Shown piece after piece: positions 22,470 to 35,082 of a stretch of 64,000 nucleotides of DNA; the stretch's first letter is position 1, and every line of letters begins with the position of its first letter. The position numbers and the translations under genes were made by a program. The stretch is taken from assembly GCA_023920165.1 (NCBI GenBank), contig CP089276.1:1612001-1676000 (forward strand), read 5' to 3'. The DNA is from Curvularia clavata. Lineage: Eukaryota. Below the pieces are notes generated by a model. The model had not been told where the DNA came from. It saw only the letters and a program-made list of their open reading frames with translations, and searched no databases.

Positions 22470-24587
22470 ATGCGATACGCTCACACTTTCACAGGTATTG
22501 CAGCACTGGTTGGGTGCAGTAAGTAGAATGGGCTCCAAACGTTGAGTTTTGTTGACGTCGAGACAGCCCTTGCTCAAGGTGAGGCTCAGTCTACAGTTGT
22601 CTACGATGCGGAAACGAAAATCAGCTATTCTTCGTACACGGAACCACAGACAGGAATGACTTTTGGTGTTGCTCTCCCAAAAAATGTGAAAGATCCATAC
22701 GATGCAATTGTCAGGATTACAGCTCCCGTCGCCAGCAAGTGGGTGGGCTTCTCATGGGGAGGGAACATGGTTTGGAATCCACTGAGCGTCGCCTGGCCAA
22801 ACGGACGTTCTGGAGTGGTATCTGCGCGGTTCGCGTTGTAAGTCTTCAGTTAAGTCATAGGCCACGATAATGTTCGCTGATATAGGGCAGTGGTATTGGT
22901 CTTCCCCTTGGATACGATGGAGCTGAGCACACATATCTTAAAGGGACCAAGACAAACGCTACGCACTGGACAGTCAATGCTCTCTGTAAAGGATGTACTG
23001 GGTGGCAAAACAGCGAAGACGCACGCTATTCTCTCAACGGAACCGGAGTGACAGAGTTTGCCTGGGCCTACGGTGTTTCTGCAGTTGAAGATCCAGTCCG
23101 CAACGACTCAGCCTTCAATGTGCACCAAGCCTGGGGGAAATGGATTCACAATCTCGACGCTGCGCGTATCGATAATTTTGAGTCTCTAGTCCAGGCCAAC
23201 TTGTTGACAGCACCAACAGCCAGTCCATCCACTGACTCGACTACAGTCTTAACAAGTATCGTGCAGTCCACGTCTGCAACCGCAAGGCCAACCGCTGCTG
23301 CCATCCCCACTTCTTGCCCTAGTGCTGGGAGCCCTGCGTTTCAGGGTAATCTAGCAGCAGGATGGAGGGCGACCAAGATTGCTGGAGGAATGACTAGTCC
23401 ACGAAGCATCCAGTTCGACAATGCAGGCAACATGCTTGTCGTACAGTCCGGAAAGGGTATATCGTACCACAAAATGGGAGCAGATGGCTGTGTCACATCG
23501 ACAAAGATGTTGATATCGCAGAACAATCTCAACCACGGGATAGCATTGAGCCACGATGGCAAAACACTTTATGCCAGTTCCATGACTCAAGTCTACGCTT
23601 GGCCATACGACGCCGCTGCCGGTACCCTCGGAACCCGGACGACTGTCATCACGGGCATGTATAACGGTGGCTCGCATCTTACGCGAACTCTGGCTATTGC
23701 ACCCCAGAACTCAACCCTGTTGATAGTATCACATGGATCCAACGCGAATATCGACCAAGCTACATCGGACCCAAAGACAGGGCGTGCCATCATTAAGGTC
23801 TTTAATCTGGCGAGTGTCCCCAATGGGGGATATAATTACGCCACTGCTGGTTACAACGCTGGTTACGGGCAGCGCAACGAGGTCGGCATCTGCTTCGACA
23901 GCAGCAACATGTGCGTGTTTGCCTAGAAAATACACTCTGTAATTTGATCACTGACCAAGAAACAGGCTATGGGGCGTAGAAAATAGTGCCGACCAGCTCA
24001 CTCGCAACGGAAAGGACGTCCACAATGACAATCCGGGCGAAAAAATACACTACATGGGCGATGTGACTAAGCCCAACAACGCCTGGTACGGCTATCCATC
24101 GTGCTTCACTGTCTGGAAGTCCAGCGACTTCACCGACAAAACATTCAAAGTCGGCGACTGGTTCACACAAACCCCCACTAGCACCATGAACGATGATACC
24201 TGCAAGCAAAACGCTACTCCACCCAAGTTAACCTTGCAACCGCACTCCGCACCCATCGACTGCAAGTTCGACGCCACCAGCTCCGCAATGTACATTACAT
24301 ACCATGGCAGCTGGAATCGGCAGCCTGTTACAGGGTTCAAGCTTGTGGCTGTAAAGTTCACGCGCGGCGCTGATGGGAATTACGTACCCGTGGAGCCGCT
24401 AAATAGCACGACTGCGGCACAGGACGTTTTTTACAACCCAGCGGTGGAGAAGTGTCAGGGGAATGGACCTGGATATAGTTCTGGGTGCTTTAGGCCGGCG
24501 GGGTTGGCGTGGGATGCGGTGGGGAGACTGTATATGACGTCGGATACGTCGAGTAATGGAGAAATCTGGGTATTGGGACAATCGTAG
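22470..24587 (+). CDS. Secreted AA8 cytochrome b domain + AA12 PQQ-dependent sugar dehydrogenase, three introns
   Basis: Signal peptide (MRYAHTFTGIAALVGCTLA); CDH-type cytochrome motifs WVGFSWGGNM, LCKGCTGW, FNVH; Ser/Thr linker; AA12 motifs PRSIQFD, LNHGIALS, HLTRTL, RNEVG, WGVENSAD, DNPGE, HSAP, HGSWNR. Confidence 0.85.
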
Positions 24588-24920
24588 GGTAGGGATAGGG
24601 ATGTAGGTTTCGGATAATGTAGAGGGGACGTGAAGGGTTGTCTTTGTAGGTCTAGGCTGGTTTGTGTACATTTATGTCGTTCCAAATATCATGGTTTCAT
24701 TACTCGACTACATATGTATGTACTCGTGTTCGTGGTTTTGTCCTCGGAAATGATAAAGACTTTCAACGAGAGAACTTCAAAAACACCCTTTCAATGGGTT
24801 TCATTGTTTGTCAAACCTAAAAGGATGTTCTGGGGGATTCCATACCATCGTGGGCGTACTTCATCCACACCCGCTGCTCCTGGTCTCAAAGACTATACCC
24901 ATCATAGGCTACAACAACGA

Positions 24921-26382
24921 TTACTTTGCCTTCCGATAGATATCGCCCGTCCGCCTAATCTCCTCCTCTTCATCTCTCCCTCTACCTTCCGCCTCCAGCT
25001 TCCTAACCAGAGGCAACACCTCTTTACCAAACCTCTCAATATCCTCATCATAATGCAGATGCGCCGTAAGCACCAAATCAACGCCCAAGCTCTTCAATAG
25101 CAAAATGCGATCTGCAATCTGCTCCTTTGTACCAATCAACTTGGTCTTGAAACCGTCGTTGTACTGAACCAAGTCCTCAAACTTGCTATTCGCCCACATG
25201 CCCTTCTTGTTGCTCGTACTGGCACCAGCCTGTTGCACCGCGTCGCGAAATGCTTCAACGGCCTCGACATCGGCTTTCCCCTGGATCTCCTGCAACACGC
25301 GGATAGCTTCTTCCTCGGTGTCGCGGACAATAACGAAGCCATTGACGGCAAAGCGAACTTCACCTTCGCGCCCGGCTTTCCTCGCGCGTTCTTTCACGTC
25401 TGCAATTTGCTCGCGGAAACCGTCGAGGTCGTTGCCGTTCATGAAGTACCAGTCGCTGACTTCAGCGCCGTTTTTGCGCGCATCGTCACTGTTACCGCCT
25501 TGGAAGATTTCTGGATGGGGTTTTTGGACAGGCTTGGGGGCGAGCTTGTAGTCGCGGAATTGGTACTGGTGGCAAGGTCAGTCAATTAAACCATCTCCTC
25601 AAGTATGTTTCGTTGCGTCTGCTGGGTAAGAGTTGCACGTACAAAATCGCCGCCGAAAGTAAAGCCTTTTTCATCGGCAGTCCAGATGCCCTTGAGGGCG
25701 CGAATGAACTCGTTGGAACGTCTATAGCGCTCAGCGTGTTCCAGCCACCACTGCCCAATACTCGTGAATTCGCTTTTGTTCCAGCCAGAAACGATGTTCA
25801 CAGCGATGCGTCCGTTGGAGTAGTTATCGATACTAGCAATCTGTTTTGCTGCAACAGTGGGATTCCACGGCCCGGGAAGGATAGCAGCAATAAGTTTGAG
25901 GCGCTCGGTGCTATGAAGTAGCGCCTGGGAGAAGGAAACACTCTCGTGCTGATTTTCGGCACCGTATGATGCAGTGAAGCGGATTTGCGTGAGTGCATAC
26001 TCAAATCCGTATGCTTCGGCTGTCTGAGCATATCGCACATTGGATTTCAAGTCCCAGTTCGTCTTTTGGGCTATCTTGGATACGACGAGACCGCCCGAAA
26101 CATTTGGGACCCAGTAGCTGTATCCTCACAAGGTTAGGTGTGTGCGGTTGTGGAGGTGTTCAATGGGGGCTACCCACGCAAACAATACACGATCAGGATC
26201 CTGGTTCAGATCCAATGGCTTTGCGGGCGTATAGCCGTCTGTTGCTCCATTGGTATGCCCATTGGTGCCATTTGTACTGCTGCTCTCTACTTCTATCGAG
26301 GAAATGGTCAGCCATACGGTTTTGAAAGGATTGCGATTTCCTGTAAAACAGTACCTGTCCTTTGTCTCTTACGCGGCGACAT
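24921..26382 (-). CDS. SfnG-like luciferase-family flavin monooxygenase (putative dimethylsulfone monooxygenase), three introns
   Basis: Spliced protein contains FAYWVPNVSGGLVVSKI, GFEYALTQIRFTASYGAENQHESVSFSQALL, IAAILPGPW, PEIFQGG, DLVQYNDGFKTKLIGT, which I recognise as bacterial SfnG signatures. ATG 26382 (MSPRKRQRT). Confidence 0.85.
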
Positions 26383-26516
26383 GTCGGTTTGGAAAATAGT
26401 GCGTGATACGAGCTTGGTTAGAACATTGGACGCCAGAGACGTCTTGTAGTACGATACAGTACGATCTTGGCCGTGACTACAAGATGGTCAAGCAGATGTG
26501 CGCATAATAAGCGTAA

Positions 26517-26526
26517 ATTGCGTGAT
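26517..26526 (-). promoter_or_regulatory. ATCACGCAAT element ~135 nt upstream of the sfnG-like ATG; candidate MetR/CYS-3-type bZIP site
   Basis: Identical 10-mer in the same gene-relative orientation at 28660-28669 upstream of the dszC-like gene. Confidence 0.5.
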
Positions 26527-27253
26527 ATGTGACCATACCTGAGACTTGCGGGGTTGACGAGGATCCAACTAGGTGGTGAACTAGACTTCAGGTCCGAAGA
26601 GAGATCTACCGCTGACGATCCTGGCCTAATCTGCTAGTCGGATTTACCCTGCAAACTTAATAATTTCCCGTCATGGGTGGGGGTTTTAGTACTACAGCCT
26701 CCGGTAGTTCTACGGTCCGCCCACTGTAAATGGCTGATATTTAGTTACAAAGCCATACGATAGGTCCGTATCTGCATAGCCGGGGGGATCTGAGGGCTCC
26801 TCTTGTTACTCTTCTCAGCTCAATATGAGACCTATCTACGATTATTTCCCATGACACTTGGTAACTGATAGCGGAGATAATTCGGGAAACTAGAACGCGT
26901 GGGTCTGCATGTTCTTCAGTGACATGCTTGAGCAAGCTATACTCTGGGTCATAGTGCAGAAGTCTTGCTCAAATGGTATCTTCCTCGGAACGTGAGGTTA
27001 TATTGGTTCTATTGTGATAGTGGATAGTCCCTACACCAGGAATAAAGCCGAAGCACGCCATTCATCTTCACTTAGTCGTGACGACTACAGGCGTGCGGCA
27101 TACTCTCATGTCGATCCTTGAGTGTCGCGTCAATTGGCCGTTTAGTTTACTCCAGTACAAAAGGGCACAGATCGAGTCAGTGGATCTCATGAATGTCTTT
27201 CCTGCGCATAGATAATCATGCCTAGCTCTTCGACAATCGACCTCAAGAACAAA

Positions 27254-28215
27254 ATGAGTGCTGCAACTAGCGATGTGGAGAAGCAAACCGTCAACGAGAT
27301 TCCTGTCGTGTCAGTTGGAGCTCGAAAGACCTTGGGCGCTGGAGTGAGTAATGATGACCGAAACATACACGATTTCGCTAAGGTGTGAAGACAGCACTTC
27401 CTATCGGAGTCTTCGCGACGACCTTGACCACGTTGTCGTTCAGCTTAATGGAGTGGCGAGGAGTTACCATAAACAATGTCTTCATAGCCAATTTTTTCTT
27501 CGCGGCGGCTTTCGGCAAGTGACAAGCGTAGACAATGCCCAGGAGACGTGACTGATTTTATACTAGGCCTCTTGATTACTGCACAGTGGGAGCTCTCTGT
27601 GGGCAACGGCTTCGCCTATACAGTCTTCAGTGCCTTTGGCATGTAGAGCCTCACTGCTGCTAGGGATGACCAGCTAACTCGAGGCTAGGTCTGTTCTATG
27701 CTGGCTATGGTGCGATTCTGACGCCTGCCTTTGGGGTTGTGGCGGCCTACGGAGATAACGTGACGGAATTGAACAACGCTCTCGGCTTTTTTATGATCAG
27801 TGAGTTGCTCAAGTCTGTCGATAAGCTACAGCACCGCTAAATATGGCGTAGTGTGGACGGTTTTCAATTTGGTGTTCCTCGTCGCCTCATTGCCGACAAA
27901 CTTGGTCTACATTCTCATTTTCTTTTTCGTTGAGCTTGGGTTTCTTTTCGTCGCGGCTTCTTATTTTGCTGTGGCAGATGGACACCCTGCTGCTTCGACT
28001 GCTCTGAAGAAAGCCGGCGGTGTTTTCTGCTTTTTGTCTGGATTAACTGGTGAATATCTCTCCTCCGCGAATTTCATACGAATCATATACTGACTTCGTA
28101 CACTACTCTTCTAGGCTGGTATCTGGAATTCGCCTTATTGCTGAATGATTCTATTGTTGAGCTACCTCTCTGCGACACTTCAAGGTTCTTCGCGAAGAGC
28201 AGAAAGCGGGAATAA
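27254..28215 (+). CDS. GPR1/FUN34/YaaH (Ady2/SatP) family small-anion transporter, five introns (two GC-AG)
   Basis: Spliced product MSAATSDVEKQ...TALPIGVFATTLTTLSFSLMEWRGV...AQWELSVGNGFAYTVFSAFGLFYAGYG...NNALGFFMIMWTVFN...KAGGVFCFLSGLTGWY...; six hydrophobic segments. Confidence 0.82.
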
Positions 28216-28659
28216 GCGGCAAGCAGCGTTGGGCTCACATTGGAGTACCAGGAGGTATCTCGGAGGCGCACAGTCTTCCGGAAACTGTGATGGGCTGTGG
28301 AGAGTCGGGGTGAGGATGATGCGATTGAGGGGTTGGATGGCGAACGCGGTTCGGGTTGTGGTGAGCTTTTGATGTCAAGTTATAGTCTCTTTTAAGGTAG
28401 CACAACCACAAAGATCCTGGTGTTCGTCGCTGCACGGATCGGCACGTTTCATTTTCGTTGTCCAGAGTTGGAGATTGGTGTAACGCTACGGGGCTGATGG
28501 TCTGCCGCAGTCGCGCTACTAGCTGCATCTCGGCAGACAACTCGACTGTCATCCGTACAGCATCGGAGGTATATCCTTGTCGGCACCCCTCCATTCTGAT
28601 AGTCATTATGTGCTGTTCCAGTGGACCGCAGCCGCGCAAATGGCTTTGGAAGAAATGCA

Positions 28660-28669
28660 ATCACGCAAT
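28660..28669 (+). promoter_or_regulatory. ATCACGCAAT element ~120 nt upstream of the dszC-like ATG, followed by TATAAA at 28719
   Basis: Exact copy of the sfnG-like promoter 10-mer. Confidence 0.5.
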
Positions 28670-28788
28670 AAGCTGAGTATATCGTATCATTTACAGTCTT
28701 TCTCGGCGAGATTGTAGATATAAAGTCGCATCGGAACGTGGAGGACATGGGCGACTAACGAGACGACATCAACACTTTATAGAGGTGC

Positions 28789-30271
28789 ATGATGGCTATC
28801 AACAACGGCGCTAACGGAACCAATGGTCAATCGGGGAATGCGCAGAACGTCAACTTCAGAGATCCCTCTGTCTATGCTGAGTACGAGAAGAAGTGGTCAT
28901 CGATTCCGGAAGACGAAGCGGGCTGGCTCCAGCGCGCTCAAGATGTCGCTGATGTTCTTGCAATTGATGCCGTTGTGCGAGACCAAGAGAACATGTCCCC
29001 GCGAGCTGAAGTAGCTCTACTCAAACACTCTGGGCTTCTCAAGGTTCTTGGTCCAAAGCAGTACGGTGGTGGTGGCCAACCGTGGAGCGTTGGTAAGTTC
29101 TCGACAAACAAAATTCAATCGGAGACATACTGACTCTCAACAAGGCTACAAGGCGATTCGGAAAGTAGCTGAAGCAGACGGGTATGCTCACTGTCCTGCT
29201 CTCGTACTCGTGTACTAACTTCTGTAGTTCAATTGGCATGCTGCTCGGCTACCACCTTCTCTGGTCAACCACAGCAAACGTCGTGGGCTCACCAGAGCAA
29301 GCCGATCGCATCCAAAAGCTCATAATCGAGAACAATTACTTCATCGGTGGCGCCGTCAACCCTCGTGACAGTGACTTGTCAATCAAATCCGACGGCGACA
29401 ATATTGTCTTCAACGGATTTAAATTTTTCAACACAGGTGGTGTTGTTTCCGACCTTACTGTTCTCGAGGGTGTCTTTGAAGGCACTGGACACCATATTTT
29501 CGCTTTTGCAAAGACCGACCAGCCTGGTATTCAGTTTGGGCATGATTGGAACAACATCGGTCTCCGCTTGACAGAGTCTGGGAGCGTCAGGATCTCCGAT
29601 GTGAGCGTGCCTTGGGTCGATGCCCTAGGCTGGAACCTCGAGAAGAAAGAACCAGATCCGCGCGTGCTGCAGATACCCTTTGCTACGCTACTTCTCCCGA
29701 CTATTCAGCTTGTCTTTAGTAATTTCTACCTTGGTATTGCCCTTGGGGCGCAGCAATACGCAGCAAGATATACACTGAAGGGCACCCGGGCATGGCCTTT
29801 TGGTGGCGATGTAAGCACAGTACTGGCATTCTAGTAATGCTGCTAACGCGTTACTAGAACAAGGAGAAGGCGACAGATGAGTTCTATATCCTTGAACGTT
29901 ATGGCAATTTCCATGCCCACCTTCGTGCCGCCACTGCTCTAGCAGACCGCACGGGCAAAGAAGTCGATGCCATCTACCAAAAATACGGAGGTGATTTGGA
30001 CAGTCGCACCAAGCTGACGGCACGTGAGCGAGGTGAGTTGGCGGAGTGGATCGCAAGCATCAAGGTCGTCGCAACAGATACTGGCCTGCGGGTTACTTCG
30101 GGAGTGTTTGAGGTTACAGGCGCAAAGGCGACGAGTCAAAAGGTAGGCCTGGATCGGTTTTGGAGGGATATTAGGACGCACACGCTGCACGATCCTGTCG
30201 CCTACAAGAACCGCGAGTTGGGCAGATTCGAATTGTTGGGCGAGGTTCCAGAACCTACCTGGTACACCTAG
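28789..30271 (+). CDS. Acyl-CoA-dehydrogenase-fold flavin monooxygenase of the DszC/SfnB/MsuC sulfur-acquisition group, three introns
   Basis: EVALLKHSGLL, ADGSIGMLLGYHLLW, NGFKFFNTG, DWNNIGLRLTESGSV, GLDRFWRDIRTHTLHDPVAYK, C-terminal PTWYT. Confidence 0.85.
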
Positions 30272-31950
30272 TTAGGCTGTATCGATGCATTATGGTTGTT
30301 TTGTTGTCTTCCGCCGTCTTTGCGACCGCTTGAAGCAAGAGGGGTTGCGCTGAATCTAGACGGCTCTCACTAAAGCCACACTCAACGATACTTTTAGACT
30401 GTCGATCATGGAATCATGACTGAGCTCTAGCCGTCTCCACTCCTCTCGGTATTGCTGATGCAAATGATGTGCAATGTCTCGGCAATATTTAGAGTTTAGT
30501 GGCCATGCTAGCAATTCATGAGAAATGCTTCAGCGAATTGGTGTGTATCCCGCAATAGGGTGACGCATTCGTGTATACCTAAACCTTGATACCAAAACAA
30601 ATGCTGCCTCCGCAATCGTCATCGGGGATAGGGATTCTTGGGCGCGCACGCTCAGGGTCGAATGGCCACAGGGTCATCGATTGGAATCGAAACATTGACG
30701 CCTCCCCATCTGTTACTGAGGGTGCTGCTAGAGATTGCGGCCCGAGCCAATGCGATAAGGCGAGGCCCTCGTGGTCAAGCTTTGGTGGGGTCGACCCAGT
30801 AGTGGAATGACGGAGGGGACAAAAGAGCGGGTATCGGCATAGCTGTGGCTGATTGCCTGCTGGCATGCGATGCCCAGGGATGCGGTGTGCCTGAAAGAAC
30901 TTGTTCTTTTGCATAACGATCGTCGATGTCAGCTTTTCTGTAGCTGATTGTACATTCCTCTGGATTGGCGAGGGTCACCGTACGTGACGCAGCGGCCAGG
31001 CGAACCGGTTTTGTGTACTATATGCAAGACTCTGGGCAGATGAATGTGGGACGGTAGTTGAGCCTGCTGGATGGATTTCAGGCAAAATCCCATGGGCCAG
31101 GCCAAAGTGCATAGGCAGGGAATGGCAACTAGGGCCGGTTTCACCCGGCCGAAGCGCAGTGGGCATGACGGCCATCGTCCTGTCTACTGCTGTGACTCGG
31201 CGAGCGTGGTCGCCAGGGCGCGACTGGTGGATGCAAGAGCATGACTGATGGTTTCACATGACAGGTCGAAGAGTTTTTCCAAGCAACGGAGCGATGCTTG
31301 TCAGCACGCCTGGCCGCAAGGAGTAGTACATCGACGTATGAGGATAGAGAGCATAGGATGTGTCAGCGGATACGGAGGGTCGCGGAAGCCACCTGCAGTG
31401 TGAGGCTTTTTTGCACAAGTGTTATCCAGGGCGCCGTCCGCTGCTCTCGGACACGACTCTTCGCCCGCTCGTCTCTTCCCAATTGCTGTTGTTGTCGCTG
31501 TCGTCGTTGTCGGTGTCCGCGGACGTCTTGGCAGGCTCTTTAACAGACACGAGTTCGCAGTCTAGAAGGCGCCATTGGCAGGCACGGCTACGTCACGCTT
31601 GCGCACGGATTGCGCTTTCCTCGGATCGGTTCTAACGCGCTGCCGCGGTAGGTGCGGACCAACCTGGTCGCTCCCACGGGCGCTCACGTCATAGGAAATT
31701 CATTCTCCGTCTCCGTGCCAGTTGCGCCGTGGCTCCGGCCAGCTGCTATACTTCAGCTTCGGGTCTGCCCTGCCTCCCGGGCTAGTCTCTCTCACGACAA
31801 TTTTGTTTTTTTCCTTTTGCCCTCCGCTTGACCCTCGAGAACCCGTGATCCTCTCGCTCTGCCACCAACTCCCCCGCGTCGGCTTGCCCCACCTTGCGCC
31901 TAGGTAGTCTAACCACGCACAACGGGCACAGCTCTCGCACCATCTCAACA

Positions 31951-34900
31951 ATGGGTTCCCTCAAGAAAGCGCTAGACAAGCTCAAGCCGGGCCACAGCGG
32001 CTCCGCCTCAGACGACGACAAGAGCGGCGTCAAGTCGCCAACCACGCCCAATGGCAGGGGCCTTTCCCCCGCTGGTACTCCGCGCTCCTCCGTCACCCTG
32101 CCTACTGGCCGTGCCAGTGGTGACTTCAAGCGCAATGAAGCCTCGTCTCCTACCGAGAGCAGAACCAGCTTCGACCACCAGCCCCGCAACTCCCTTAGCG
32201 GCATCCTCCACCGCCGAACAGAGAGCCCTGGCCGCTCCGCCAAGGCAAACTCCCACCAGCGCTCCAGCTCTCTTTCCGCCCATAGTCCTATGCGCGCGGT
32301 CAAGGAAAAGCTACACATTGGAAACGACTCGAGTGACGACGATACCCCCCTCAACCGCGATGGCGAGCCCATGTCTCGCGGACAACTGCGCAAGCATGAG
32401 AAACAGGCCCAGCAGGAAGAGCGGTACAAGCAGAATCGTGAAAAGGAACAAGAGCTGGAGCGCCGCAGGAAGGAAATGGAGCATCAGGCTTTGGCTGAGC
32501 TCACGCCAGAGCAGAGGGCCAAGTACGGTGTCATCCCTCCCAACAGCTACGCCGGCGAGTGGAAACACGAGCCGCGTCACAAAATCCAGGATTTTTCTGC
32601 AAAGGATGTCGGCAAGGAGGTTGTCTTCCGCGCCCGCATTCACCATCTCAGGAAGATGAGCTCCAAGTTTGTCTTTTTGATGTTCCGACAGCAGCTCGCC
32701 ACCATCCAAGGCGTCCTCTTGGAGCACGGCGACATCTCCAAATACATGCTGTACTGGGCCGAGCACCTGGACGCAGAGACAGTAGTCATTGTCAGAGGTA
32801 TCCTACAGGAGCCCAAGGCTAAGCAGGGTGAGGTCCTCGGTGCCACCATCCATGATGTCGAGGTTTCGGTCCACGCCTTGCACGTCGAAGCCTCAGTGAC
32901 AGAACACCTCCCTTTTAATGTCAACGAAGCTGAGGTGTCCCAAGCCGAGGTCGACGCCGAAGTCGCCAAACTGGCCGAGGAAGAGCGTAAAGAAGGGCAT
33001 ACCCGAGTCAAGATTGCAGACAGGACTCGTCTCAACAACCGCGTAATCGACCTAAGAACGACTGCCTCGCAAGGTATCTTCCGCATCCAGTCTGGTATCT
33101 GCAGACTCTTCCGTGAACATCTGGATTCAGAGGGCTTCATCGAAATCCACACTCCTAAGCTGCAAGGTGGTGCAACAGAGTCTGGCGCCAGTGTTTTCAA
33201 GATTGACTACTTCGGCCGTGGCGCATTCTTGGCTCAGAGCCCCCAATTGGCCAAGCAGATGGCCATCTCTGCGGATTTTGGCAGGGTGTACGAGATTGGT
33301 GCCGTGTTCCGTGCTGAAAACAGTAACACCTACCGACACTTGACCGAGTACACTGGCCTCGATCTGGAGATGCAGATTGACGAACATTACCACGAGGTCT
33401 TGCGTGTGCTGGATCGCACGTTCAAGGCTATTTTCAAGGGCATCTACGAGCAGTACCGCCCTGAGATCGAGGTCATCAAGAAGCACTTCCCGCACGAGGA
33501 TTTGGTCTGGCTTGATGAAACCCCCATCATTCCATTCGCTGAAGGTGTTCGTATGCTGAATGAGTCTGGATGGAGGGATGACGATGGAAACGAGCTTGAT
33601 GAGAATGAGGACCTGGGAACCAGGGATGAGGTCCAGCTTGGTCGTGTCATCAAGCAGAAGCTAGGCACCGACTACTACGTCTTGGACAAATTCCCTGCAA
33701 ACGCCCGCCCCTTCTATGCCATGAACGACCCCAACAACCCCAAACTCACAAATTCGTTTGATATCTTCTGTCGAGGTCAAGAAATTCTCAGTGGCGGTCA
33801 GCGTATTCACGACGCTGACATGTTGCTGGAGAAGATGCGCAAGCTCAAGATTGACCCTAGCTCCATGGAAGAGTACATTCAGGCCTTCCAATGGGGTGCA
33901 CCCCCTCACGGTGGAGGTGGTATCGGTCTGGAGCGTATTCTCATGTTGATGATGGGTCTTGGAAACATTCGTCATGCTTCCATGTTCCCCCGCGACCCAA
34001 AGAGTTTACCGGAGAAGCCGGTTGTCAAACAACTGCGTCATCCTGAAGCAAGCACTATGCACCCTCCATGGGAAGGACAAGACCGCGCTCTTGCCAAGAT
34101 GGACTTCCAGCCAATCGAAAAGCTCATTGCCAACTACGGAGATGCCACCAACACATCCTGGTTGGAGCCTCGCACTGAGATTTGGCGAGATGAAACTACC
34201 GGTGCGGCTGTTGGCTTCGTGCCCCAGGATGGCTTCGCCATCACTGTTGGTGACCCTCTGTGCCACGAGTCCCAGTACCTCAAGACCATGTCTGCTTATC
34301 TCAAATACATCAAAAAGGAACGCAACCTCAAGCCGCTCTGGCTGCTTGTAGGATCCGCAGTCGAGGAGGTCCTGGCGACCAAGTTCAACTGGCGCACATT
34401 CTCTGTTACCGGAGAGCAGCGCGTCGACCCTGCACACAACCCCGCCGAGAAGGACTCGGACGTACAGCGCAAGATCCGACACGCTGAGAAGGAAGGTGTT
34501 AAGATCACTGACTATGCCCTTGGCTCGCCACCACCAAAGGATGTCAAGCAAAAGGTTGATGCTCGTGTCGAGGACTGGCTGAAGAACCGCAAGGGCAAGC
34601 AGGTTCATTTGACCAACATCCACCCGTGGCAGGATGAGGAGCATCGCCAGTACCACGTCGCGACTACACCGGATGGTACCATTGTTGCGTTTGTGACCAT
34701 GGCCCAGTTGTCGCCAGACCATGGCTGGCAAGTCAAGTATTCTCTCGACTTCCCAGGCGCACCGAGCGGCTCAATCGAGCAGATTGTCACTCACGCTCTC
34801 AAGCAGGTCGCAGCAAGCGGCGCTACGACCGTCACCTTTGGTGGTGGTGCTAGCTCCAAGTTCAGTCCTGGACACAACGTCAAGGGTACCCGTGTCAAGG

Positions 34901-35082
34901 TCCTCAGCCGTGCATATCACGCAATCGCAACAGAGCTTAAGCTCACCAACAAAACAGAGTTCCGTGAGAAGTTGGGTGCGACGGACGACCCGAGTTACAT
35001 CTGTTACCCGCCTCACGGGCTGGGCCCTATGGCAGTCAAGGCCATCCTGAATTTTTTCTCGGATGACGAAGACAACAACTAG
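31951..35082 (+). CDS. erdS: Aspartyl-tRNA synthetase fused to a DUF2156 aminoacyl-tRNA transferase: ergosteryl-3beta-O-L-aspartate synthase
   Basis: Intronless. Disordered N-terminus, AspRS (FIEIHTPKL, LAQSPQLAKQ, VFRAENSNTYRHLTEYTGLDLEM, PPHGGGGIGLER, FPRDPK), then ~330-aa domain (IANYGDATNTSW, AITVGDPLC, WQVKYSLDFPGAPSG, TFGGG, FREKLG). Confidence 0.92.
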   Translation: MGSLKKALDKLKPGHSGSASDDDKSGVKSPTTPNGRGLSPAGTPRSSVTLPTGRASGDFKRNEASSPTESRTSFDHQPRNSLSGILHRRTESPGRSAKANSHQRSSSLSAHSPMRAVKEKLHIGNDSSDDDTPLNRDGEPMSRGQLRKHEKQAQQEERYKQNREKEQELERRRKEMEHQALAELTPEQRAKYGVIPPNSYAGEWKHEPRHKIQDFSAKDVGKEVVFRARIHHLRKMSSKFVFLMFRQQLATIQGVLLEHGDISKYMLYWAEHLDAETVVIVRGILQEPKAKQGEVLGATIHDVEVSVHALHVEASVTEHLPFNVNEAEVSQAEVDAEVAKLAEEERKEGHTRVKIADRTRLNNRVIDLRTTASQGIFRIQSGICRLFREHLDSEGFIEIHTPKLQGGATESGASVFKIDYFGRGAFLAQSPQLAKQMAISADFGRVYEIGAVFRAENSNTYRHLTEYTGLDLEMQIDEHYHEVLRVLDRTFKAIFKGIYEQYRPEIEVIKKHFPHEDLVWLDETPIIPFAEGVRMLNESGWRDDDGNELDENEDLGTRDEVQLGRVIKQKLGTDYYVLDKFPANARPFYAMNDPNNPKLTNSFDIFCRGQEILSGGQRIHDADMLLEKMRKLKIDPSSMEEYIQAFQWGAPPHGGGGIGLERILMLMMGLGNIRHASMFPRDPKSLPEKPVVKQLRHPEASTMHPPWEGQDRALAKMDFQPIEKLIANYGDATNTSWLEPRTEIWRDETTGAAVGFVPQDGFAITVGDPLCHESQYLKTMSAYLKYIKKERNLKPLWLLVGSAVEEVLATKFNWRTFSVTGEQRVDPAHNPAEKDSDVQRKIRHAEKEGVKITDYALGSPPPKDVKQKVDARVEDWLKNRKGKQVHLTNIHPWQDEEHRQYHVATTPDGTIVAFVTMAQLSPDHGWQVKYSLDFPGAPSGSIEQIVTHALKQVAASGATTVTFGGGASSKFSPGHNVKGTRVKVLSRAYHAIATELKLTNKTEFREKLGATDDPSYICYPPHGLGPMAVKAILNFFSDDEDNN

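Follow-up and report, generated by a model that had tools for sequence, protein, structure and literature searches.

A 64,000-nucleotide stretch of the 32.4-Mb genome of the fungus Curvularia clavata (GenBank contig CP089276.1, positions 1,612,001 to 1,676,000; C3:1612001-1676000 in our coordinates, hereinafter the window) raises the question of what unites three adjacent genes, which code for a predicted dimethylsulfone monooxygenase dependent on reduced flavin mononucleotide (FMNH2), SfnG; a transporter of the GPR1/FUN34/YaaH (AceTr) family; and a monooxygenase of the acyl-CoA-dehydrogenase fold (hereinafter gene 3). The reading that we favor, and regard as moderately probable, is that they constitute a sulfur-starvation-induced module that would free sulfur from small methyl-sulfur compounds. 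A first description made from the letters of the window, without database searches (the sequence-only reading), had proposed a sulfur-scavenging module with gene 3 acting as MsuC after SfnG. The module itself is upheld by the identity of SfnG, by synteny and by induction data from Neurospora, whereas the placement of gene 3 fails on its scores and its clade, as detailed below.

An intact, transcribed cluster conserved across fungi

The cluster is intact, transcribed and conserved across fungi. The three genes are present at the positions and in the orientations first described, and gene models, RNA and flanks confirm the original gene order, with sfnG on the minus strand, a divergent transporter and then gene 3, set among unrelated genes:

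24921..26382, minus strand: sfnG, predicted FMNH2-dependent dimethylsulfone monooxygenase; 4 exons (26382-26355, 26292-26178, 26117-25643, 25565-24921), 420 amino acids (aa); from TIGR04021, a structure match and RNA introns.
27254..28215, plus strand: GPR1/FUN34/YaaH (AceTr) transporter whose signature and pore are divergent; 6 exons (27254-27343, 27391-27514, 27567-27638, 27689-27799, 27852-28049, 28115-28215), 231 aa; from PF01184 and RNA splicing.
28789..30271, plus strand: gene 3, acyl-CoA-dehydrogenase-fold (group D) monooxygenase; 4 exons, 444-445 aa; from a domain match, trees and RNA introns.

No internal stops occur in any of the three translations, and the closest protein matches are from Pleosporales. 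Splice joints in RNA contigs account for 3/3 introns of sfnG and 3/3 of gene 3, while 3/5 introns of the transporter are joined directly and a fourth is implied by a loose end; the spliced transporter was seen in runs X9 and X11. An 80-nucleotide (nt) first intron of sfnG was discarded for the 62-nt intron seen in RNA, and an upstream ATG at 27218 would extend the transporter to 243 aa.

Conservation of the linkage was assessed in a single metagenome scan of 80 loci, of which 79, grouped into 59 sets, were used after exclusion of a probably non-fungal, low-identity locus (L116) from the count. After de-duplication, 25 fungal contig groups are informative, in that they extend at least 4 kb beyond gene 3 on its upstream side; in these, the partners of gene 3 are the transporter (12), sfnG (10) and a medium-chain reductase (5). 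All four genes occur together in four sets (L077, L086, L102, L105). The locus tags of sfnG and gene 3, compared by eye, are 1-3 genes apart in 5 of the 6 species with both visible (Kalmusia, Hymenoscyphus, a Mollisiaceae, Drepanopeziza and Alyxoria); with these, the 16/25 groups keeping at least one partner bear out the earlier suggestion of co-location in relatives. The Exophiala SfnG and DszC-like proteins are likewise g9837 and g9836, entries left uncommented in a table of PMC11778650. The searches made found one copy each of sfnG and gene 3 in the ~32-Mb genome, which in total has 2 PF00296 loci and ~6 PF01184 loci. Two single-copy genes within 2.4 kb of each other, with a linkage that recurs across fungal classes, are not paired by chance. 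The genes on either side, a TrAA12/cellobiose dehydrogenase-cytochrome gene to the left and an aspartyl-tRNA synthetase fusion to the right, were found beside the cluster in 0/80 related loci, and we therefore place them outside the unit.

Gene 1 is predicted to be a true SfnG

Sequence comparisons identify gene 1 as a true SfnG. On the SfnG model TIGR04021 (equivalog cut-off 383), the two large exons reach 263 and 296 bits and an 88% identical orthologue (P0002) reaches 565 bits, above the cut-off; the SsuD and RutA models score <80 bits against the exons. The best structure match is SfnG 8t0u (E 2e-69 and 5e-64). Of the residues described as binding dimethylsulfone (DMSO2; W11, Q53, R55, Y60, W121, F267, W285, Y296 and N297; PMC11588060), 9/9 are kept in gene 1 when compared with 8t0u, as are 7/7 oxygen-pocket residues from the same source, and each of the nine is kept in 116-120 of 120 fungal SfnG homologues. 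The SfnG identity given in the sequence-only reading thus agrees with both the profile scores and the substrate residues. The tight aromatic cage, fully kept, would suit a very small sulfone as substrate. Among the FMN phosphate/ribityl contacts H136, Y140, S188, S189 and N284, 3/5 are identical in gene 1, and the N188 and M284 that replace the other two are found in 120/120 fungal and 11/11 actinobacterial SfnG proteins and in 0/7 proteobacterial ones.

As a separate observation, the first exon of sfnG (26355-26382) encodes a basic K-R-Q-R stretch resembling a nuclear localization signal. Of the 120 homologues listed, 13 that stand alone (Pleosporaceae, Helotiales) have similar N-termini, and a comparable stretch is found near the start of several LovC-like reductases (see below).

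Gene 3 belongs to a distinct group D clade

Gene 3 has the acyl-CoA-dehydrogenase fold and, near its C-terminus, the H-x-x-H motif of group D flavin monooxygenases. Against structures, it matches DszC best over its full length (232 bits), followed by MsuC (222 bits) and TdsC (218 bits). Three family assignments were rejected. As DszC, its 88% identical orthologue P0121 scores 265 bits on NF043015 against a cut-off of 850; as SfnB, P0121 scores 216 bits on TIGR04022 against a cut-off of 431 and falls outside the SfnB clade; and as an MsuC orthologue, its 222 bits compare with 530 bits on MsuC 6u76 for a true orthologue, a gene from a bacterial msuE-sfnG region that falls in a different clade. 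Close orthology with Dms1-3 of Acinetobacter is argued against by identities of 25-32% for the top group D matches from an A. baumannii record, the Dms1-3 sequences themselves lying outside the comparison. In phylogenetic terms, gene 3 would instead define a separate group D clade without a described activity, sister to an actinobacterial clade.

The nearest bacterial relatives of gene 3 are these actinobacterial proteins (50-55% identical), which unite with the fungal proteins in one clade (FastTree support 1.0 and 0.999). Matches at this level were found in 3/301 genomes sampled from the phylum and in 17/251 from one order. Within the flanks available, sfnG lies directly beside the gene of the actinobacterial sister clade in 14/22 loci, against 2/14 for relatives of 31-42% identity. 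Examples of the sfnG-group D operon are the Saccharopolyspora locus (L120) and two Streptomyces operons (L131, L132), the latter with sfnG, the group D gene, an ssuE-like reductase gene, an sfnB-like gene and a luciferase-like gene. These operons resemble the fungal cluster in the sister-group relationship of gene 3, the linkage to sfnG and the N188 and M284 common to fungal SfnG, and differ in that the Streptomyces operons carry a flavin mononucleotide (FMN) reductase that the fungal cluster lacks; we found no characterization of them. A transfer of the two enzymes together from a single actinobacterial operon was rejected: gene 3 fits it and sfnG does not. The SfnG tree groups the fungi with proteobacteria, on a short branch with a distant root, support that shifts on re-rooting and no formal clade test, and with the fungi placed nearer proteobacteria a single operon transfer is not shown.

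The active site offers a further comparison with the dibenzothiophene monooxygenases DszC of Rhodococcus and TdsC of Paenibacillus, which share the fold of gene 3 and differ in that gene 3 scores far below the DszC cut-off and has no dszA or dszB beside it. In what we take to be the DszC numbering, the pocket of gene 3 shows H92->M, S163->T and N129->G, while the C-terminal histidines and the tryptophan that presumably form the DszC flavin site are kept. A literature search found no paper on the roles of the catalytic residues of DszC.

These pocket differences at N129 and H92 would suit a broader unit for scavenging or detoxifying sulfides, sulfoxides and sulfones, acting on larger plant or microbial thioethers (e.g., methionine- or glucosinolate-derived) with DMSO2 as a minor substrate. 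An NtaA/DszA-type gene replacing sfnG beside gene 3 in 2 contigs (L101, L115), and the occurrence of gene 3 alone in 9/25 contig groups, point the same way. We nevertheless regard it as quite unlikely, given that the fully kept aromatic cage of SfnG fits a very small sulfone and that induction in Neurospora tracks sulfur starvation and not a toxin (PMC8550094).

The order of the sequence-only reading could also be retained with gene 3 as a functional analogue of MsuC, oxidizing to methanesulfonate the methanesulfinate made by SfnG. MsuC 6u76 is among the top structure matches of gene 3 and the best for exon 3, the Saccharopolyspora sister protein is narrowly best on MsuC (241 vs 227 bits), and group D enzymes are promiscuous (PMC13352529). 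Beyond the separate clade of the 530-bit orthologue, what makes us consider this unlikely is the bacterial enzymology: Acinetobacter MsuC has a kcat of 0.006 per s and its deletion causes no growth defect, and three group D enzymes of that organism oxidize dimethyl sulfide (DMS) to dimethyl sulfoxide (DMSO) and DMSO2 (PMC13352529). Because the Acinetobacter group D enzymes make DMSO2 while MsuC is slow and dispensable, a role of gene 3 upstream of SfnG is the better inference, if one that we hold about evenly balanced.

The transporter represents a divergent AceTr subfamily

The transporter matches PF01184 with 39 bits for one exon (cut-off 25) and has the motif layout of the AceTr family (Ato1/Ady2, Gpr1, AcpA, SatP), from which it departs in its signature, in all three constriction residues and in its score on the NCBIfam acetate-transporter model (20.8 bits for one exon and 31.6 for a relative; cut-off 50). 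By the motif definitions of PMC13316224, 2/7 residues of the NPAPLGL signature are identical, and the pore constriction reads T/F/V in place of F/Y/L, with the yeast register obtained via a canonical paralogue. In cluster-linked transporters, V is seen in 18/18 loci, and F and T in 14/15 and 15/15 covered loci, respectively. On this sequence evidence, they form a distinct AceTr subfamily with changed signature and pore. In yeast Ato1, F98A and L219V admit larger anions and Y155F is tolerated (PMC8379382), and methanesulfinate or methanesulfonate would be plausible cargoes. An acidic residue beside the pore was dismissed as a special feature, as the canonical paralogue has one too.

The transporter could conversely be an ordinary acetate/formate channel, a mere long-term neighbor of the paired enzymes or an exporter of formate derived from the released formaldehyde. 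This accords with the absence of the transporter from 4/10 groups with sfnG and from the Neurospora pair, and with the ~6 PF01184 loci of the genome. It is set against the distinctness of the subfamily, the status of the transporter as the commonest partner of gene 3 (12/25) where other flanks are never kept, and gene models that merge the two in Fusarium and Bisporella; we judge it highly improbable.

A LovC-like reductase is a fourth component in many fungi

In many fungi the module includes a fourth gene, coding for a LovC-like medium-chain reductase, which is absent here and had been missed in the sequence-only reading. The reductase forms an N-terminal domain fused to SfnG in 22 of the best 120 SfnG homologues (>375 aa). 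In some of these, the coding sequence nearly fills its contig (835 aa on 2654 nt), consistent with genuine fused transcripts, and in Bogoriella the two are separate neighbors. This LovC-like family is devoid of zinc ligands, retains the LovC lysine and carries an invariant motif of its own; its predicted fold (predicted local distance difference test score 90.6) matches LovC and quinone oxidoreductases and is silent on flavin reduction either way. The sfnG-transporter gap holds no remnant of the reductase: when the DNA of L077 is compared with the window, the flanks on both sides of the reductase match and the reductase portion does not. Because L077 is ~91% identical and has all four genes, the reductase would have been lost recently in the Curvularia clavata lineage.

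The closest match to the reductase in the genome (46-51% identical) is found at a distance of 0.9 Mb, in divergent orientation to the one further luciferase-like gene of the genome. Its surroundings form a second organosulfur cluster (L037:4919-8363, L038:242-3674; G000:C3 ~2.545-2.553 Mb), in which an NtaA/DszA-type monooxygenase gene is divergent from the reductase gene and followed by genes for a membrane protein and a flavin monooxygenase; retrotransposon integrase-like frames lie just past it (L037:398-1609). The gene order matches Neurospora NCU05888-05885, all of which are CYS-3-bound and induced >100-fold (PMC8550094). As the LovC-like family is tied to two FMNH2-dependent oxygenases, in the position where Streptomyces operons have SsuE, it is a fair candidate for a flavin supplier; the rival role would be reduction of aldehyde products instead of flavin. 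The annotated Neurospora sheets of PMC8550094 hold no gene annotated with 'FMN', a weak negative in that annotation may hide one. Elsewhere in this genome, an 803-codon frame with a PF01613 flavin-reductase domain (G000:C1:2065626-2070084), ~3 kb from a TauD gene, might be a trans-acting reductase.

Probable control by sulfur

The apparent Neurospora orthologues support the sulfur-limitation co-induction envisaged in the sequence-only reading. A single, common CYS-3 peak lies 311 and 580 bp from the starts of NCU10015 (mox-7) and NCU10016 (PMC8550094). Without sulfur, NCU10016 rises from ~0 to 260, 84 and 187 fragments per kilobase and per million (FPKM) and stays at ~0 in cys-3 mutants, and NCU10015, whose counts are merged with those of a neighbor, rises from 27 to 247, 124 and 190 FPKM with no rise in cys-3 mutants; NCU10014 and NCU10012 are unchanged (PMC8550094). 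The pair is thus like the genes here in its divergent layout and in annotation names shared with the homologues found, and it has a single CYS-3 peak and co-induction; it differs in that mox-7 is termed an alkanesulfonate monooxygenase, and the parts of PMC8550094 available to us propose no cluster or DMSO2 route.

Non-coding features of the window may bear on such control:

26493..26559, no strand: conserved block in the divergent promoter, 75-81% identity in 4/11 related loci tested.
26517-26526, minus strand: ATCACGCAAT within this block, 9/10 match to the CYS-3 motif of PMC8550094.
27041..27089, no strand: conserved block upstream of the transporter, 79% identity in 2/11 loci; its CYS-3-like core at 27055 varies.
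28232..28368, no strand: conserved block in the transporter-gene 3 gap, 77-82% identity in 5/11 loci; CGCCAT half-site at 28337 (minus).
28660..28669, plus strand: second ATCACGCAAT, 120 bp before the gene 3 start and outside the conserved blocks.

In 33/39 loci the 800 bp upstream of gene 3 contain the core RCGCMAT, which was picked after the window had been seen, against 16/38 downstream (p=1.3e-4).

An apparent long minus-strand RNA over the cluster

Two RNA runs from two studies, X4 and X2, differ from the others in the following feature, where the RNA nature of the data is a program's guess, the strand derives from intron polarity, and the contigs do not resolve a single molecule:

24682..31046, minus strand: long RNA cover, antisense to the transporter and gene 3 and continuous with or overlapping the sfnG mRNA; confined to runs X4 and X2.

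The cover includes intergenic parts at a depth of 31-46 in X4 and 7-15 in X2; the left neighbor has a depth of 0-4 and 0, respectively, which argues against DNA as the source. Plus-strand introns are retained in 7/7 fully spanned cases in X4, whereas sfnG introns are removed (3/3); X9 and X11 show spliced plus-strand genes and no cover over the sfnG-transporter gap. A minus-strand GT..AG intron with a branch point (28094-28038) is removed in X4 and X2, but its donor is the reverse complement of the transporter's branch point, so that it may be a chance splice site. The cover stops ~430 bp short of the tRNA-synthetase transcript, which is highly expressed. As it ends near this gene, a neighbor absent from related loci, the RNA is perhaps a local by-product of a two-way promoter; as a hypothesis, it may repress the cluster.

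Two flanking genes were noted in their own right:

22500-24587 of the window: a cellobiose-dehydrogenase cytochrome domain joined to a TrAA12-like pyrroloquinoline quinone domain.
31849-35082 of the window: a fusion of aspartyl-tRNA synthetase with an MprF/DUF2156-like domain, covered at a depth of 633-1057 in X4 and X2.

The latter fusion resembles the known ergosteryl-aspartate synthase ErdS.

A proposed route from methyl-sulfur compounds to sulfite

In the sulfur-scavenging module that we favor, the group D enzyme would first use FMNH2 and O2 to oxidize DMS or DMSO to DMSO2, as do DszC and Dms1-3, a step on which we are evenly divided. SfnG would then cleave DMSO2 to methanesulfinate and formaldehyde, which the identity of its active site makes very probable. 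Oxidation of methanesulfinate to methanesulfonate may need no dedicated enzyme, or may be a secondary activity of gene 3. That no FMN reductase or MsuD lies in the window, as the sequence-only reading had stated, stands (no PF03358 or PF01613 match for the former); that MsuD acts in trans does not, no SsuD/MsuD having been found in the genome. Because of this absence, we propose that sulfite is released from methanesulfonate by unlinked TauD/Jlp1-type dioxygenases; TauD has 24 matches in the genome, and fungal sulfonate desulfurization by Jlp1-type enzymes is described in PMC5857272. The AceTr channel with its widened pore would, more tentatively, move methanesulfinate or methanesulfonate. Reduced flavin would come in trans; the best, if doubtful, candidate source is the LovC-like reductase, represented here by the paralogue beside the only other luciferase-like monooxygenase gene, and a CYS-3/MetR-type factor would switch the cluster genes on.

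Several observations weigh against this proposal. With respect to the enzymes, gene 3 lies no nearer to DszC than to MsuC, so that its place in the pathway is unreadable from sequence; SfnB-like proteins are only 25-30% identical to it; S188N and N284M make two FMN contacts of SfnG unlike those of Pseudomonas; and ordinary FMN-reductase family genes occur elsewhere in the genome. With respect to linkage, no partner was found beside gene 3 in 9/25 informative groups, sfnG and the transporter occur together in just 6/25, and the Piccolia locus tags are far apart. With respect to control, the orthology of the Neurospora pair rests on shared annotation names and the divergent layout, the pair has no transporter between its genes and one of its counts is merged with a neighbor's. 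In addition to the after-the-fact choice of the RCGCMAT core, the full 10-letter CYS-3 motif shows no significant enrichment across loci (7/39 vs 2/38, p=0.15), and its 4 occurrences in the window against 1.59 expected are reached in 10/100 shuffles.

The best-known counterpart is the DMS-DMSO2 pathway of Pseudomonas and Acinetobacter (Dms1-3, SfnG with SfnF/MsuE, MsuC, MsuD/SsuD). Fungal SfnG is 60-66% identical to the proteobacterial protein with the cage kept, and both systems combine a group D monooxygenase beside SfnG with sulfur-starvation control, which is probable for the fungal genes. The fungal genes differ in bearing introns, in a group D enzyme that falls in neither the MsuC nor the SfnB clade, in the lack of a linked MsuE/SsuE and of a detectable SsuD/MsuD in the genome, in an AceTr channel in place of ABC transporters, and in the LovC-like reductase beside or fused to SfnG in relatives. 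Automatic annotations already name some fungal homologues SfnG; our literature search, in which most subscription papers were beyond reach, found no paper describing the cluster or testing a fungal SfnG, and PMC7441637 and PMC10455693 yielded nothing specific to it. New here are the transporter subfamily, the placement of gene 3 outside MsuC together with its sister operon in actinobacteria, the recent reductase loss and the long RNA. A bolder reading, which we deem unlikely, is that filamentous fungi possess a full DMS-to-sulfite route of bacterial origin, comprising the group D clade as a DMS/DMSO oxygenase, a LovC-like flavin reductase replacing SsuE/MsuE and also paired with DszA-type enzymes, and an acetate channel re-tuned for organosulfur anions, here maybe silenced by the 6.4-kb minus-strand RNA starting beside the tRNA-synthetase promoter.

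According to a 2018 review, FMNH2-dependent monooxygenases and their reductases are uncharacterized in fungi and the sulfinate step has not been shown in them (PMC5857272); the cluster names genes for this gap, in Neurospora among others. If the proposal is true, soil, lichen and plant-associated fungi would be a sink for DMS, DMSO and DMSO2 that lies outside the survey of bacterial genomes in PMC13352529. It would likewise provide a first activity for a widespread group D clade, possibly a new class of flavin reductases and a non-carboxylate role for the AceTr family.

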